A DNA stretch of 64,000 bases, taken from assembly GCA_965645245.1 (NCBI GenBank), contig OZ287068.1:1240001-1304000 (forward strand), written 5' to 3'. Numbering within the stretch: the first letter of the stretch is position 1; each line of letters starts with the position of its first letter. This stretch comes from Massalongia carnosa (taxonomy: Eukaryota). A model generated the notes under the pieces. That model made no database searches. It had not been told where the DNA came from and saw only the letters and a list, made by a program, of their open reading frames with translations. The translations under genes were made by a program, and so were the position numbers. Positions 19,082 to 57,246 of the stretch are shown piece by piece.

Positions 19082-19864
19082 TTATGCTGCTAGACCGGTA
19101 TTTTTGCGAAAAGAGACCTTTTCAACGGCAACATTTTCCACCCCGTGTGGATCTGTCTTCAGCTGGTATACATACAAGACAAGTACATCCCCTTGTACCT
19201 ATCACATTTGTCAGCAATACTCTATCCCAGCTAGGGAACATAAACATACATCCATTAGACAAAAGCTCGGCGTAGGTTCCTCCCCATTTGCCCACCATCC
19301 CGTGCCTAACGCACCCGTTGCGCTGCCAGGATTGACGAAGAACTTTCCTTCCAGCTCGTATGCCTCAAACTTGTGGGTCCCTCCCCACAAAAGCACATCC
19401 ACATCCATATGCCGGGCCGCTATCAGTAAGCTATCAGCGTCCCCAGGCGGTATGATGGTGTGTCCATGCGTGAACCCTATTCTCAGTGAACCGTGCGTAA
19501 CCACTTTGGAGAGGGCTAAGTTCGGCGCTTCAACGTCGAAGTCACCTTTAACAATCTGGAGGTCGGGTGCGATCTGGCGGAGGAAGTCGTAGGTTTCTTT
19601 GTCGGTCAGGTTGCCCAAGCAAAGGATCTGGCCAATTTTGCCAGGAGTGAGAAGCTTTTTGAACTATGTAGGTTGACATTCCAGTAAGCCATCAGACCAG
19701 AATCAGGGGTTCTGTTGTAGGGTGTACTTTTGCCGGTATATCCTGAAGCACCGAATCAGTCTACCTATACTTTGCGCGAGTGAGGATGGATGGTGTGCTT
19801 CTCATACAGGTGCGCGGTCGGGTATGAATAGATCACCGAGCACCAGCACTAATCTGGAAGCCAT
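19082..19864 (-). CDS. VPS29: retromer subunit Vps29, multi-exon
   Basis: MASRLVLVLGDLFIPDRAP, KIGQILCLGNL, VKGDFD, THGHTIIP, FVNPGSATGA and PSFCLMD|VQGD motifs; stop TAA at 19084-19082. Confidence 0.95.
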
Positions 19865-20527
19865 TGCGATAAGATGTCCTCCTCATCGAGTCCCTTGATT
19901 CCTCCTACTGCCCTCCAAACCTCAACTCGCCCTCAGTGAAGGAGCTAGAGGAGCAGAAATATCCTAGAAACACGTTCGTTTCAAAGGAGGTTAGTATACC
20001 TTGCTGTTTTTTGTTAAAACTGGAAAGATAATTTAGATTGATAAAGTTAATTGACGTTTACGAAGTTCATGCTCTGAGCAGAAATATTACATTTCTGTAA
20101 AAATATCCTTGTTGGAGGCGTCACCACGGGGTGGAGATGGCACAGGTTTGCCCCAGGTCTTCAACGACCCTGAAAATAGGTACACTTTTCCAGATTGTAA
20201 ACCTTATAAACTACAACGAAAAGGCTCTACTTTAGCGCCTACCACAAGTCGACTTCTCTACGTACCACAGTAGCACCTTCGAAGTGAGATCATCTTCCGT
20301 CAATCCGTTCCCTCAACTGCCGAAGACCCCTCATATCATTAGCCCTGGCTCCCCCACGCTCACGCGCAAGACTGAGTCTCATCTCAAGGCACCTGGAAAA
20401 TATACCATTATTGGAGCTCAACACCCCATTCTCTACTGAAAGACAATCTGGGAAGCCGGACGACGTGGAGTACATTCCATTTGGAAGACCGGTTTCAGAT
20501 CTAAAGGACGTGCAGGAAAGCAACAAG

Positions 20528-21792
20528 ATGTCTAATCAGCCAGAGCACCCGTCTCTGCTGATTCCAGGGCCAATTGAATTTGACGATGAAGTGCTTCAGT
20601 CTATGGGCCATTACAGGTGCACAGAGAACAGCGCGCCAATGGGTTACGGCAATTTTGCTAACCCTACATCAGCGAGAGCCATGTTGGTGCCCCTTTTGTC
20701 GCTGTATTCGGCGAGACACTTTCTATGTTGCGAAAACTCTTCATTACTTCCGACCCCTCGTCGCAGCCGTTTGTCATCTCCGGTAGTGGTACGCTCGGGT
20801 GGGATTTGGTAGCTGCGAACCTTGCCGAAAGAGGCGACGAGGTCTTGGTTCTACATACAGGATACTTTGCGGATTCCTTCGCCGATTGCTTTGAGACTTA
20901 TGGCGTCAAGGCCACTCAGTTGAAAGCGCCCATCGGCGATCGCCCTCAGCTACCCGAAGTCGAAAAGGCGTTAGGGGAGAAGAAATATAAACTGCTTACT
21001 GTTACGCATGTGGATACCTCTACGGGGGTGTTGAGCGAGATAAAGGCCCTGTCAGAACTTGTGCATCGAGTTAGCCCTGAGACTCTTGTTGTGGTCGATG
21101 GTGTTTGTAGTGTTGGTAGTGAGGAAATACGATTTGATGAGTGGGGCCTTGATGTTGTCCTAACAGCGAGCCAAAAAGGCATCGGTTGCCCAGCCGGTCT
21201 CTGTATATTAATGTGCTCAGGGCGAGCCATTGAAACCTTCAAGAACAGAAAATTACCGCCTGCATCATATTTTGCTTCTTTCAAGAACTGGTTACCAAGT
21301 AGGATTCCCCCTATGGCTTACCGGACAAAGGTTGGGAGCTGACTATCTTCAGTCATGCAAAACTATGAAGTTAGAAAGCCCTCTTATTTCGCAACTCCCT
21401 CCCCTCAGCTCATCCATGCGCTTCATACAACCCTAACTCAAATATTAACACGCCCATTATCGGACCGCTTCGCTGCCCATAGAGAGACCTCTCAACGTAT
21501 AAAAGCAACCGTCATGTCCCTAGGGCTCAAGCAACTTGCTTCGAGGCCAGAAAACCAAGCTAATGGTATGACAGCAGTGTATTTGCCCGATGGCATACAA
21601 GCTCCGGAGATACTCCCAAAATTACTGAAAAGAGGCGTCATTTTTGCCGGCGGGCTGCATAGGGACATTGCAGCAAAGTATATTAGGTTCGGCCATATGG
21701 GAGTTAGTGTGACGGATCCTAAGAGGGGTGATATCGACCGAGCGTTGGAGGCGCTTAAATCGGGATTGGCGGAGGTGGGTTACGCGCCGTGA
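20528..21792 (+). CDS. AGX1: alanine-glyoxylate aminotransferase (class V PLP enzyme), 2 introns; possible CUG-initiated extension from 20345
   Basis: LLIPGP, SGSGTLGWD, THVDTSTG, VDGVCS, ASQK (PLP lysine), YFATP and IRFGHMG motifs. Confidence 0.93.
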
Positions 21793-22004: not shown

Positions 22005-23064
22005 CGGAGGATGACACAGGAAGTTCTGGCTAGCGTATTTTAGCTTGCATTAGCTTCCGCCACTAGACAAGGGGGTGGTAAAATTTTTAAAGAAAGGTTC
22101 TCCGGGCATCAAGATATAAAATGCTTCATTATTTGTAATTTATAGTTGATTTTAGTTGATATTTGGTAGCTATCATCATCATGACTCGTCCTCAAGATAA
22201 CACACTGACTCTCGCTCAAAGACTTCAGGCCTTGACTCTCGTAGAGCATGGAGTATCAGCCAAAGAGTAGAGGAAATCACTGAATTCTCGACGAGATCTA
22301 TCAGTCATATCAAGAAGAAAGCAAGAAGCAGAGGATATGATCCCGAGATCTCACGAGTCTTGAAGATAGAATATGTAGAAGATGCACCTCGTTCAGGCCA
22401 ACCTTCTAAAGTAACACCTGCATTGGAGGAGGCTATATTGACTGATGTACGCAAAGATCGAAACGGAAGGGAAGATCGTCCAAACACGGTGGTTCAAGAA
22501 GATAAGGCCCCCTGTCATACCTCCAAACATCAGGATATGGTGTTTATGGACTTTCGAGTGCTTCGCTTTTTGTGGCCTGGCAACTCACCTGATCTCAATA
22601 TGATTGAACCATGCTGGCCTTGGATGAAAAGACGTACGACCCTCCTCGGAGCTCCACGAAGCAGACGGGAGGCCGAAGTAGCATAGACTGAATGTTGGGA
22701 CGAACTATCGCAGGAGCAAATACAAAGCTGGATATAGAGAATGCCTCGTCACATACAGACTGTCATTGAGTTTGAAGGAGGAAACGAGTACAGAGAAGGA
22801 AGAACAGGAGGAAGGGTACGACCTTACGATGCTGAGGAGCGGCGCAGTCGATATCTGCGTTCAAAGAGAGGTCCTACTGAAGATGAGGAGGAGTGGGCCA
22901 ATGTAGACTGATGAGGAGGTGGATAAAAAGGTTAAAAAGGAGTAAATAAAGGAGTAAATAAAGGAGTAAATAAAGGAGTTTATCTTCGTAGGGCTGAGGC
23001 CCTTGTAGGTGGCTTATTTAGCGTGCATATTAGCGTCGGCCAGAACTTCCTGTGTCATCCTCCG
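22005..23064 (+). mobile_element. internally deleted, non-autonomous Tc1-like (DD34E) DNA transposon
   Basis: Perfect 26-bp TIRs CGGAGGATGACACAGGAAGTTCTGGC (22005-22030 and 23039-23064) with TA on both sides. The HTH region (APRSGQP) is joined directly to QEDKAPCH...SPDLNMIE. Frameshift and premature stops are present. Confidence 0.93.
22936..22979. repeat. 12-bp tandem repeat (AAAGGAGTAAAT) about 3.7 copies inside the Tc1-like element
   Basis: Read directly. Confidence 0.85.
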
Positions 23065-44160: not shown

Positions 44161-45605
44161 TAGATGATTGGTTGTTATACATCCAACCACGAACCACGGA
44201 AACTGGAGAATATAGGGCTTGCTGTTCCAAAGATACCTGGAGGATGCGATTGTTAAAGACCCTGCTTCTTAGGTGCAAAGAATAATTTTCGCAGCAATAA
44301 TAACAACATCAACATCATCCTTTTCTTGTCCGGGATTTACACATGCAACCTGGCTTGATCAACCGAGCATCTTCTCACCCAACCATCCAGTACATGCGGA
44401 GCCGTTGGCAAGACTAGGGGTTTTCTTTACAAATGGTGGCTGGTCGAGCAATCAGAGGGAGCTGGCTCAACAGCTCCCACTCCGGCAAAAACCGAGAAGA
44501 TAAAAGAGATCGTCTACTCCTTAATAGCTTTTAGACAACGCTTCGATTGCATAGTTAAGACGTGGCATGAGAAAGCTCAAGGATGGAATTAGGAATTGGA
44601 AATAGCAATACGAGAGGGTGAAAAAGGCATTGAAAACAGACAGGATGAGTGGTGGGCGGAGATTGCTCTGCAGAACTGGACGAATTATTATGAATCGGAC
44701 AGGGAAAGGGCCGAGGTGGAAATAGCAATGCAGCGCAAGTAAAATATCGAGAGAAGATAAAAGGAGGAGATGCCGAACGACAGACTCCAGTAAAGCTTTT
44801 GATAAAGGTCTACTGAACCGAATGATCAATCCCTGAAAGTAAACCCTTGTTTGCTTGAATATGGTCTCTTCAGCCAGTACATATAAAGCAAATCTTATAT
44901 GCTCAGAATCAACCATGGCGGCTACAAGAAATTCCTATCGAAGCCCGTTGTCTTCAAACATGTCAAGCGGCAAAACTGGTACTTCAGCAGGAGTCGACGG
45001 ACACAGGCGGTTTGCTACGACCAGGGTCTGGGGGTACTTCGATTTTCAGGCACATCTCAGCCATCTTTGAAGCAACCCCTAAAGCAATGTCGATAAATCT
45101 GGCTCCACGATTGAAATCCAGAAAGCGTCAAGTCTAGACTACTACTGCTCCGAAAGCATGTCGAGAACGGTTCTCAAAGTAGTCCTCCTACCTGTATCTA
45201 GCACCTGACTAGCAAGATCCTTGTATCATTGAGCACGTAATATATGTGTATGATGTATACAAAATACAGGATCATTCATCAGACTTTGATACTTAAGTCA
45301 GATCCAGCAACACAGAGAGAGGACTTGGAGAGTTTCTTGTAAAGTAAAGAGGAAGAGGTGTGAAACCCGGGGCGCTACGGCGTAGTATTCTTCCGAGCCG
45401 TCCCGAGGTATCTTGCTATGACGTATGACTCTATAACTCTCTTCTGACACTCTCGACTGTTGCACCTGTCTTGTGGAAGAAGGAGAACTGGGACGACAAC
45501 GACAACGACATCAAAATCAAGATATTTTCAAGCGTTTGGAGAAACACGATCGGAGTTCAAGTCATTTTCCGTTCATACGGTTCATACGATGCACACCTCC
45601 CGAAA

Positions 45606-46914
45606 ATGCTTGAGTTTCGTACCCAAGGTTTCAATGGCTATGCCGTGAAATACTCCCCCTTCTTTGACTCCCGCATCGCCGTCGCCTCCTCCGCGAACTA
45701 CGGTCTAGTCGGCAATGGGCGCTTATACGTCTTGAACCTCACAGCAAAGGGTATTGTCGCTGAAAAATGGTGTGTCTCCAATGTCCGGTCGCCATCTTTA
45801 TTTAAACCCCGCCAATCCTACATCGATATCCAAATTGCTCACGCAAGAAACTGGGGCTAAAAAAGGTTTGACACGCAAGACTCTCTTTATGACCTCGCCT
45901 GGTCGGAAGCGCACGAGAATCAAGTGGTGGTAGCAATAGGGGATGGCTCCATCAAACTCTTCGATATCGCACTTGACGAGTTTCCCGTGCAATCATGGCA
46001 AGAGCATAAACGGGAAGTATTCGCTGTGCACTGGAATCTTGTCACCAAAGATACCTTCTGCTCCAGTTCCTGGGATGGCACTATAAAGATTGTACTTTCT
46101 CCCCTCACTTCTCATTTTTCTAAAATTTCTCCTTTCCTCCAATACCCTAACCCAGCCACCAAAACAGTGGTCTCCTGATCGCCACGACTCCATCCTGACC
46201 CTCCCAACCCACACCTGCACCTACAGCGCCGCCTTCTCCCCACACAATCCGTCCCTCCTCAGCGCCGTCTCCTCCGATTCGCACCTTCGCATCTTCGATA
46301 TACGCACCCCAGCCTCCGCCTCAAACCATCTCACCCTTACCATCCCTCTTCATGCGCCCTCTGCATATTCAATACCTCCACCACATGAATTTCCCCCTTC
46401 TTCCGCCTGTTATAGCCAACCTGAAACACTACCGCCAGCCGCATTAGCTCTAGCATCTAGCCCCCCTTCTGAAGCACTAACCCACGACTGGAACAAATAC
46501 CGCCCCACCATCCTTGCCGCTGCCGGCGTTGACCGCTTCATCCGTACCTTCGACCTCCGCGCTCCATCCCGAGGCCCCCTCATTATTCTCGCCGGCCACG
46601 ACTACGCCGTGCGGAAATTAGCGTGGAGCCCCCACGCAGGAGACATCTTGCTGAGCGCCAGCTATGACATGACCTGTCGCGTGTGGACCGATGGCACCAG
46701 CAATAGCGCGGATGGTGAGGAGAGGCACAAGAGCCCGATTACAGGAGCAGGAGGAGCATTGGAAGGGGGAAGGGAACTGGGGCAAATGAGCCGGCACACG
46801 GAGTTCGCCATGGGCGTGGATTGGTGCTTGTTTGGCGGGGAGGGGTGGTGCGCCAGTTGCGGGTGGGACGAGCGGGTGCTGGTCTGGGATGTTAAAGCCG
46901 TGATGGGGAGTTGA
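45606..46914 (+). CDS. PEX7: peroxisomal PTS2 receptor (WD40), 2 introns
   Basis: MLEFRTQGFNGYAVKYSPFFDSRIAVASSANYGLVGNGRL, WSEAHENQ, SSSWDGTIK, DWNKY, SASYDMTCRVW and HTEFAMGVDW motifs. Confidence 0.96.
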
Positions 46915-55935: not shown

Positions 55936-57246
55936 CAGTACTAGGCCAAAAGTCTGCGGCCCCACACCCCACCAACATTTCAATCATCCTATTCAATCAA
56001 CAATCAACCACGTCACGATTGCTGAAATGTCATGAAACTTTACATAATGATTACATACATACTAAACAAGAATTCCCCCAAATGTTGATTTTTAATATTT
56101 AGTATACCATAATTCCGACGCTATACACGCTTTTATCCTCCTATTCATGCTCTCTATTAACCTCCTCATCATTTTCACATCTATCAACGTCCAGGCTTCT
56201 TCTAACGCTTTCCAAAGTACCTCACGAACAGTTTCATCACTGCCGATCACCAAATCTATGTTCGGGTTGACTTGATAGACGAGCTTTTTGAGCACATACC
56301 AAACGTGCTCGATGGGATTTAAATCAGGTGAATAGGGGGGCCAATCGATGACCTCTATGCCGTTCTCATTGAACCATTCCATCACCTTTTTAGCCTTATG
56401 TATAGGTGCGTTATCCTGCATGAAAATGAGGCCCGGTTGCCAAATTCCAAGCAGATTATCGTTCAATAATTCCATATATGAGTTCGCCGAGTACCCCATC
56501 TTCTTCGCAGCAAAATCACGAGCCAATTTGTAAAGATCTGACCTGTCATCTCCCCAAAAAGCTGCCCAGACCATGACACTGACTCCTTTGCCTTTAGGGA
56601 CAGGTTGTATCATCTCTTTTTTCCATTTTTCTTTCGGCAATCTGAACACCCACTGACGCTGTTTTCCTGACCCCTTTTCCACCGAGCACTCATCTGACCA
56701 TATAGCTCTTGACCACTGCTCAAAAGTCCACTCACGCCGCAGCAAGCACCAATCCAATCGTTTCTTGGCCACCTCAGGCGTCAATAAAGGTTGTTTTTTA
56801 GCCACCCAGTTGGTTAAACCATACAGTTTGAGTGCTCGATAAATAGTCGTACGACTGCAGCCGAGCCCCACTTCTAGTTTTATTTGTGCATAAGTGATTC
56901 GTGGATTGATTCGTGCATGCTTGATGATATAACGTCGATCGCGTTCTGACAGCACTTCAGGCCGTCCAGAACATGATTTAGACACGCCGTCGTTGCGAAT
57001 TGAGTGCTTCTGAATGGTGCTCTGCACGGTCGATTTAGTGAAATTAAGAGTCTTCCCAATCTCGGTCGGTGTGTGCCCCAACGCCTGGGCCCCAACAATC
57101 ATACCACGTTGATATGGCGTCAATTCAGTGTTACGAGGCCGATTACCACTTATGGGGGTCAAAGAAGCACGAAGCATGGTGAAATGATTGAAAACGCGAA
57201 ATCACGAAAATTACGGGTTGGGCCGCAGACTTTTGGCACGGGACTG
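55936..57246 (-). mobile_element. full-length Tc1/impala-like DNA transposon (1311 bp)
   Basis: 27-bp imperfect TIRs CAGTACTAGGCCAAAAGTCTGCGGCCC and CAGTCCCGTGCCAAAAGTCTGCGGCCC (4 mismatches); TA at 55934-55935 and 57247-57248. Confidence 0.95.
56092..57177 (-). CDS. DD34E transposase, uninterrupted 361 aa
   Basis: HTH plus GRP, WSDE, QDNAPIH and SPDLNPIE with 34 residues between D and E; ends WYTKY. Confidence 0.95.
   Translation of the reverse strand: MLRASLTPISGNRPRNTELTPYQRGMIVGAQALGHTPTEIGKTLNFTKSTVQSTIQKHSIRNDGVSKSCSGRPEVLSERDRRYIIKHARINPRITYAQIKLEVGLGCSRTTIYRALKLYGLTNWVAKKQPLLTPEVAKKRLDWCLLRREWTFEQWSRAIWSDECSVEKGSGKQRQWVFRLPKEKWKKEMIQPVPKGKGVSVMVWAAFWGDDRSDLYKLARDFAAKKMGYSANSYMELLNDNLLGIWQPGLIFMQDNAPIHKAKKVMEWFNENGIEVIDWPPYSPDLNPIEHVWYVLKKLVYQVNPNIDLVIGSDETVREVLWKALEEAWTLIDVKMMRRLIESMNRRIKACIASELWYTKY

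Follow-up and report, generated by a model that had tools for sequence, protein, structure and literature searches.

The gene AGX1 of Massalongia carnosa, which encodes an alanine–glyoxylate aminotransferase (AGT), appears to specify two products with different N-termini: a short enzyme that begins at an internal AUG, and a long enzyme that probably begins at a CUG codon further upstream and whose 61 additional residues contain a predicted peroxisomal targeting signal type 2 (PTS2). We analyzed this gene in a window of 64,000 nucleotides (positions 1,240,001–1,304,000 of contig OZ287068.1, assembly GCA_965645245.1), and all coordinates in the following are positions in this window. The N-terminal extension, which would be present only in the long isoform (codons at 20345–20527, + strand), is almost certainly real coding sequence by the comparative evidence given below, and its PTS2 is very probably functional. 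The complete explanation, in which a CUG-initiated PTS2 form and an AUG-initiated form arise from one gene, is in our judgment likely to be correct. The extension is an ancient feature of the Pezizomycotina and not a peculiarity of M. carnosa; in many lineages it is AUG-initiated and annotated as part of an ordinary coding sequence.

The core enzyme, a class-V aminotransferase, is encoded by three exons (20528–20616, 20673–21298, and 21353–21792, + strand; stop codon TGA at 21790–21792). The two introns at 20617–20672 and 21299–21352 both end in CAG, and the donor of the first, GTGCAC, is unusual and does not follow the consensus. Exon 2 matches the Pfam family PF00266 (Aminotran_5) with an E-value of 9.4e-20, and homologues of the extension together with exon 1 are named alanine–glyoxylate transaminase in their source records. 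One of these homologues, P0006, which is 67% identical to the query P0001 (extension plus exon 1), matches the yeast Agx1 structure 2bkw_A with an E-value of 7.3e-92, and its residue 123 aligns with residue 6 of the yeast protein. The N-terminus of yeast Agx1 thus coincides with the internal methionine of the window gene (ATG at 20528–20530, + strand, context aagATGt), and therefore everything upstream of this position is an addition to the enzyme. The short isoform, presumably cytosolic, would begin at this AUG.

A sequence-only reading of the window had already drawn attention to the region upstream of this AUG, and its observations hold. The AGX1 frame is indeed open for 80 codons 5' of ATG 20528, back to the TGA at 20285–20287, and there is no ATG in any frame between a TATAAA at 20205–20210 (+ strand; by its sequence a candidate TATA box, 135 nt 5' of the CTG) and position 20528. 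The region 20140–20527 is entirely free of ATG, the last one in any frame before 20528 being located at 20137. The resulting gap is 391 nt long. Across the window, neighboring ATGs are 56 nt apart on average, and gaps of 300 nt or more account for only 10 of 1136. The CTG at 20345 lies in the gccCTGg context 61 codons ahead of ATG 20528, the nonapeptide RLSLISRHL at 20369–20395 matches the PTS2 consensus, and the C-terminus (...EVGYAP) contains no PTS1-like tripeptide, all as had been described. The C-termini of AGT proteins from related fungi are diverse and include QKA, YKA, KGL, and QAP.

The predicted PTS2 (20369–20395, + strand) comprises residues 9–17 of the long isoform when counted from the CUG, if the CUG at 20345 is the start, and it agrees at every defined position with the consensus (R/K)-(L/V/I)-x5-(H/Q)-(L/A) (as given in PMC7214817). 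In a six-frame translation of the complete 64 kb, the pattern RL.....HL occurs only two times, and the broader PTS2 pattern occurs five times, the AGX1 motif included. Because the pattern is so rare, a chance match within a leader of 80 codons is unlikely. We used the 109-residue translation of 20288–20616 as query in a protein search, which gave 181 matches, 120 of them listed. Among the listed matches, 110 of the 120 proteins contain a PTS2 nonapeptide followed by an NTPF-type block, and the other 10 are motif variants or have evidently mis-modelled N-termini. The genera represented in the list include Umbilicaria, Histoplasma, Aspergillus, Penicillium, Hortaea, Alternaria, Neurospora, Geoglossum, and Peltula, which we take to represent the Lecanoromycetes, Eurotiomycetes, Dothideomycetes, Sordariomycetes, Geoglossomycetes, and Lichinomycetes. 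Variants of the nonapeptide in relatives include RLDQISKHL, RLGQIAKHL, RLNLFSKHL, RLDLFSRHL, RLSVISRHL, RIDQMSKHL, and RVDQMVNHL: the arginine at position 1, an aliphatic residue at position 2, the histidine at position 8, and a hydrophobic residue at position 9 are constant, and the x positions vary. Many of the homologues start with a methionine a few residues ahead of the PTS2, as in MASKLTKE-RLSLISRHL from Penicillium chrysogenum or MPRSSGPVDSPA-RLSLISRHL from Neurospora. As Met-initiated homologues with PTS2 are common, the PTS2-bearing AGT must be regarded as the normal long product in those fungi.

Downstream of the PTS2, the alignments reveal a second conserved block, LNTPFSTER (20417–20443, + strand), which is conserved across classes as strongly as the PTS2 itself, and this conservation exceeds what a linker would need. 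An alignment of AGX1 leaders across the Pezizomycotina had been proposed as a check for a conserved PTS2 with synonymous variation, and in this alignment both the PTS2 and the LNTPFSTER block are kept as protein while synonymous positions vary, a stronger result than had been anticipated. Two deviating situations were seen among the related loci. In L068, the AGT core is highly similar, but in-frame stops are present and no PTS2 is found 5' of the methionine, and this is thus a lineage without the extension. In L001–L003, a second PTS2-like string (RIDVILAHI or RIDAILAHI) lies in the open frame about 25 codons 5' of the true PTS2 and is probably a chance match.

The position at which coding begins can be narrowed down by a fine alignment of the window with 10 lichen-type relatives (11 sequences). 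In the extension, the numbers of variable columns at the first, second, and third codon positions are 35/59, 25/59, and 51/59, and in the core from the PTS2 to STER they are 7/24, 3/24, and 22/24. All gaps 3' of the CTG are multiples of three. In the same alignment, codon periodicity is absent 5' of the CTG (20285–20344), where the corresponding numbers are 13/17, 13/18, and 14/18, and where gaps of 1 and 7 nt occur. What is conserved there is a 15-nt nucleotide box, TGCCGAAGACCCCTC (20318–20332, + strand), which lies 13–27 nt 5' of the CTG, shows no codon periodicity, and upstream of which nothing can be aligned between groups. In other classes, a C-rich motif is found 12–24 nt 5' of ATG-type and CTG-type starts alike. 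The box, which is at the same place in L001–L011, and the C-rich motif may represent an initiator, a transcript-start region, or a leader element. Coding sequence 5' of the start was also considered and was rejected, as in the 31 distinct sequences with a non-AUG start (see below) the coding frame is no more open upstream than frame +1, with medians of 47 versus 42 codons, and is the longest frame in only 11 of the 31. Since frame +1 is equally open, the long open frames 5' of the start reflect base composition and not coding.

To compare the start codons, we collected 70 related loci from metagenome contigs, which together with the window gave 71 sequences. The PTS2 is identical or consensus-compatible in 69 of them, and the extension recurs in 69 of the 70 loci. 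A CTG-GCN is located 5–12 codons 5' of the PTS2 in 35 sequences and a GTG-GCN at this distance in 5; an ATG is found within 20 codons of the PTS2 in 21 sequences; 8 fall into neither type (ATG at 21–35 codons, or no clear candidate); L068 has no PTS2, and L070 is truncated. After identical sequences had been collapsed, 31 distinct non-AUG and 17 distinct ATG-type sequences remained. In the non-AUG set, the start place is occupied by CTG in 26 and by GTG in 5 cases, and by no other codon; the base at −3 is always a purine (24 A, 7 G), and every one of the 31 has G at +4. The candidate codon of the window (CTG at 20345–20347, + strand, context gccCTGgct) has G at both −3 and +4 and corresponds to the CTG or GTG conserved at the homologous place. 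The three conserved leucines of the PTS2 served as an internal control in the same 31 sequences: each of them is encoded by 4–6 different codons, with CTG in only 11, 5, and 7 of the 31 and CTT, CTC, TTG, CTA, or TTA in the others. Among the 17 distinct ATG-type starts, a purine is present at −3 in 9 and a G at +4 in only 5, and the strong initiation context is thus specific to the non-AUG lineages.

Direct exchanges at the start position point in the same direction. With the same flanking residues, methionine in one sequence is replaced by valine in another (..VMAPSRATS-RL in L027, ..TVAPSRAPS-RL in P0061) or by leucine (..GVMSASRANP-RL in P0032, ..IVLAPSRANP-RL in P0050), and within the Onygenales, the Pleosporales, and the Eurotiales the residue is methionine in one species and leucine or valine in another. 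In proteins of CTG-type Penicillium or Aspergillus species (P0020, P0023, P0030, and P0034), ..KLAP.., ..TLAP.., or ..KLAS.. stands ahead of the PTS2. Exchanges between constant flanks are what would be expected if a start codon switches between AUG and its best near-cognates, and not what an ordinary leucine would show. Of the 31 distinct non-AUG sequences, 23 lack any in-frame ATG in the interval from the preceding in-frame stop to the start. The non-AUG state is found in at least 10 separate clades, and a minimum of four changes between AUG and non-AUG is required on a tree of the exon-2 proteins (60 rows, quick method), which is unrooted, so that the count gives no direction of change. The proposal of the sequence-only reading that translation starts at CTG 20345 has thus gained considerably: the codon is the one invariant near-cognate, located where other lineages carry an ATG. 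From these comparisons, the CUG at 20345 is the most likely start of the AGX1 extension in this genome, and we regard this assignment as probable. One intronless CTG-type contig of 1802 nt (L029) was considered as a possible transcript; it has an AT-rich, promoter-like upstream part and no terminal poly(A), and as it is ambiguous it was not used.

The region between the two starts is unusual in its lack of ATGs. Between the start and the internal AUG, the 31 distinct non-AUG loci contain 3 out-of-frame ATGs, compared with 16.5 ± 3.6 expected from codon shuffles, and the 17 distinct ATG-type loci contain 1, compared with 7.5 ± 2.4 expected; in neither set was a number as low obtained in any of 1000 shuffles. 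In the 31 non-AUG sequences, the closest ATG of any frame is located 101–422 nt 5' of the start, with a median of 207 nt. The internal methionine is present in all 69 scorable loci, and in 62 of the 69 its codon is preceded by a purine at −3 (A in 58, G in 4; C in the remaining 7). ATG depletion, the ATG-free leader, the constant internal methionine, and the weak context of the ATG-type starts fit leaky scanning, and from these sequence features we infer, with good support, that dual isoforms are generated by this mechanism.

In 9 of the 17 distinct ATG-type loci (L028, L030, L038, L042, L043, L045, L051, L055, and L057), a second in-frame ATG is located 15–23 codons further 5'. The peptide that begins at this second ATG is rich in Arg, Leu, and Ser and poor in acidic residues, for example MWTRGSQRLLASAASIRLKPR-MAP..., and a similar N-terminus is found in some proteins from Histoplasma, Emergomyces, and Helicocarpus. 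The upstream peptide may serve as a mitochondrial presequence, and there may be a third isoform.

The following sequence of events would account for these features in M. carnosa. The AGX1 mRNA would start 5' of 20345, with a leader of about 200 nt that contains no AUG. Of the scanning ribosomes, a minority would initiate at the CUG at 20345, which has a purine at −3 and a G at +4, and the product would be 61 residues longer than the core enzyme, with RLSLISRHL as PTS2 at residues 9–17. Pex7, the PTS2 receptor encoded in the same window, would import this long form into peroxisomes. Most ribosomes would bypass the CUG, pass through 183 nt without AUG in any frame, and produce the short enzyme from the AUG at 20528. 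Having neither PTS2 nor PTS1, the short form would be expected to stay in the cytosol, and it would presumably constitute the larger share.

Several observations have to be weighed against a CUG start. No stable RNA structure is predicted 3' of the CUG (−15.7 kcal/mol, z 0.26), and the raw counts given above overstate independence because the sequences are phylogenetically related. In addition, 8 of the 31 distinct non-AUG relatives have a far-upstream in-frame ATG, 40–152 codons away in an open frame, and an AUG-initiated longer form may exist in those 8 lineages. The locus is covered by four sequencing runs, none of which is recorded as RNA; they yielded long contigs that match the window in every letter and show no joints, one run (X4) covering the stretch only in parts. 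The remaining adverse points concern splicing. An upstream AUG exon could be spliced in frame to the extension, so that the PTS2 isoform would be AUG-initiated, either constitutively or by alternative splicing. The 6-phosphogluconate dehydrogenase (PGD) of Candida albicans is a PTS2 case of this spliced type (cited by Kremp et al., PMC7214817), and six GT..AG combinations are found in the window by which an ATG (19874 or 20137) would be fused in frame with the extension; one of the six gives MAQVCPRSSTTLKI-A-LAPP.. via G|GTACAC at 20180 and TTAG| at 20343. As the donor of AGX1 intron 1 is itself non-consensus, donor quality gives no ground to exclude such candidates. Furthermore, the pyrimidine-rich box of lichen-type relatives ends in AAG or GAG, and the CTG follows at distances of 19, 19, 19, 19, and 13 nt; these distances are all 1 modulo 3, which is faintly reminiscent of a phase-conserved acceptor, with a probability of about 1 in 9 by chance.

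Nevertheless, we consider a spliced upstream exon improbable. A CTRAY branch point 8–45 nt before the acceptor is absent from all six candidates but present in both real introns, and the TTAG acceptor beside the CTG is missing in the L004–L009 group and in L010, which have TTTACC and TTAACC. The AAG or GAG at the end of the box would be a poor acceptor, and both AGX1 introns end in CAG; 5' of the box nothing is alignable between groups. There is also little room for an additional exon, as the start of VPS29, the divergently oriented neighbor, is only about 480 nt from the CTG, and the ATG at 19874 directly adjoins the VPS29 start codon on the opposite strand. In several CTG-type lineages, the coding sequence has no introns at all. 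Splicing would also leave unexplained why the leucine codon is never anything but CTG or GTG and always has a purine at −3. A further candidate for an upstream exon, beginning with MNRSPSTSTNLEAIA (ATG 19824) and resembling the N-terminus of the Polycauliona model P0018, was rejected, as it is the antisense of VPS29 exon 1 (MASRLVLVLGDLFIP..).

Even less probable, in our view, is the possibility that the extension is untranslated or negligibly translated in this genome, that only the AUG at 20528 is used, and that the PTS2 is left over from an ancestor with an AUG start. In favor of this reading, initiation at CUG is inefficient by nature, with about 2% measured in the case of Pgd1 (PMC7214817). 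However, a relic would have decayed: the frame of the window extension is intact, its PTS2 is exact, codon-periodic conservation is common to relatives that also lack an AUG, and at least 10 clades, in which synonymous sites are saturated, have retained the non-AUG state. That the extension starts at another in-frame near-cognate, ATA 20333 or ATC 20303, is very unlikely, as both codons, though in frame and 3' of the stop at 20285, are not conserved and have a pyrimidine at −3 (ctcATAt, tcaATCc), and as frame and codon periodicity are not kept 5' of the CTG.

The proposed initiation at CUG 20345 can be compared with several known systems. In mammalian AGXT, an upstream start adds a mitochondrial presequence, and the peroxisomal route is taken by means of a C-terminal PTS1. 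The enzyme family is the same as that of AGX1, and in both cases alternative N-termini of one gene would determine the distribution between compartments, but AGX1 has a PTS2 as its N-terminal addition and lacks a PTS1. The parallel to mammalian AGT that the sequence-only reading had drawn therefore stands with respect to the alternative N-termini and is otherwise loose, since mammals combine a mitochondrial presequence with PTS1 and do not use PTS2 here.

The closest mechanistic precedent is Pgd1, the PGD of Ustilago maydis, for which a non-AUG-initiated PTS2 isoform has been described (Kremp et al., 2020, PMC7214817). As in Pgd1, the PTS2 of AGX1 lies in what would be annotated as 5' untranslated region without any upstream in-frame AUG, the near-cognate start is conserved in relatives, and the main AUG would give rise to the cytosolic form. 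The differences are substantial: the enzyme is AGT, the start is one CUG or GUG with a strong context instead of the tandem AGG AUU of Pgd1, the extension has 61 instead of about 20 codons and includes an extra conserved block, and the conservation spans classes of the Pezizomycotina with repeated exchange for AUG (PMC7214817). AGT is not a subject of that study, as neither 'glyoxylate' nor 'aminotransferase' occurs in the accessible text of PMC7214817.

The orthologous enzyme of Magnaporthe oryzae, AGT1, is reported to be peroxisomal and to act together with the glyoxylate cycle and beta-oxidation (Bhadauria et al., 2012, PMC3338719). The study was based on a short open reading frame (ORF) of 385 residues, and targeting was ascribed to the C-terminal 'QKA'; full-length fusions to green fluorescent protein were silent, and only a C-terminal fragment localized (PMC3338719). 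Unlike in this account, the AGX1 of the window ends in GYAP, and a PTS2 extension is not considered in the accessible text of the M. oryzae study (PMC3338719). Supplementary Table S2 of PMC3237427 is described as holding 65 predicted PTS2 proteins of M. oryzae, and AGT could be among them.

Leaky scanning past a weak upstream start to a strong in-frame AUG has been reported for fungal aminoacyl-tRNA synthetases, and in the dual-localized synthetases weak AUG and near-cognate starts are exchanged between lineages (Wallace et al., 2020, PMC7049704). Unlike these extensions, which are mitochondrial presequences, the AGX1 extension carries a PTS2. Near-cognate-initiated N-terminal extensions conserved across the Pezizomycotina are also known from Neurospora cpc-1 (Ivanov et al., 2017, PMC5487733). 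As in AGX1, near-cognate starts are conserved in cpc-1, where position −3 is A and position +4 is G, but cpc-1 encodes a regulatory transcription factor and has no organelle signal; neither AGT nor peroxisomes are mentioned in the accessible text of that article (PMC5487733). In the open-access literature of PMC and bioRxiv, as far as its text is accessible, we found no PTS2-bearing or non-AUG-initiated fungal AGT, and subscription journals or supplements may hold one.

With respect to the genomic surroundings, VPS29 (19211–19864, − strand; Pfam Metallophos_2) has its exon 2 at 19211–19663 and the start codon of exon 1 at about 19864–19862. The divergent arrangement of VPS29 and AGX1 is found in 29 of the 70 related loci, and a shared promoter is bounded to about 480 nt. 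PEX7, the gene of the PTS2 receptor (45600–46914, + strand), is present in the window as had been noted, with N-terminal exons at about 45600–46150 and a C-terminal exon ORF at 46087–46914, whose best match among solved structures is 3w15_A, 'Peroxisomal targeting signal 2 receptor' (E-value 2.4e-38). In this last exon, a long stretch rich in Pro, Ser, and Ala precedes the part that aligns with yeast Pex7 (residues 128–268 of 275). Remnants of Tc1/mariner-type transposases (Pfam DDE_3 and HTH_Tnp_Tc3_2) are located at 22201–22686 (+ strand) and 56092–57201 (− strand), and the first of these, just 3' of AGX1, is interrupted by a stop near 22268.

Our analysis also indicates a systematic annotation problem in CTG-type species, in which public AGX1 models are marked as partial, take an arbitrary ATG far upstream as their start, or are chimeric. 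The N-terminal peptide of the public model P0018, from a related lichen fungus, is an annotation artefact that corresponds to the antisense of VPS29 exon 1. The public models P0006, P0014, and P0017 are marked as partial or cut into the PTS2, and the annotation pipelines thus evidently met no convincing AUG either. The paired species with methionine versus leucine or valine at the start position in the Onygenales, Pleosporales, and Eurotiales make the start-codon question directly testable.

In a wider sense, the comparisons are compatible with a picture that we find plausible and put forward tentatively. The CUG, sometimes GUG, start of a PTS2-bearing AGT may be ancient in the Pezizomycotina, may have been selected in at least 10 clades of several classes, and may have been replaced by AUG at least four times. 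The identity of the start codon and its context, a CUG in strong context versus an AUG in weak context, could then act as an evolutionary dial that sets the ratio of peroxisomal to cytosolic glyoxylate detoxification, and in some lineages the presequence from a further upstream AUG could permit one gene to serve three compartments. If the CUG-initiated PTS2 form of AGX1 is real, AGT would be the second enzyme, after PGD, known to enter fungal peroxisomes by a non-AUG-initiated PTS2, with a far deeper conservation and with naturally occurring AUG, CUG, and GUG variants that could be studied as a series. The finding would also bear on the work on M. oryzae AGT1, which used the short ORF, and it would explain how fungal AGT proteins that lack a PTS1 enter the peroxisome.

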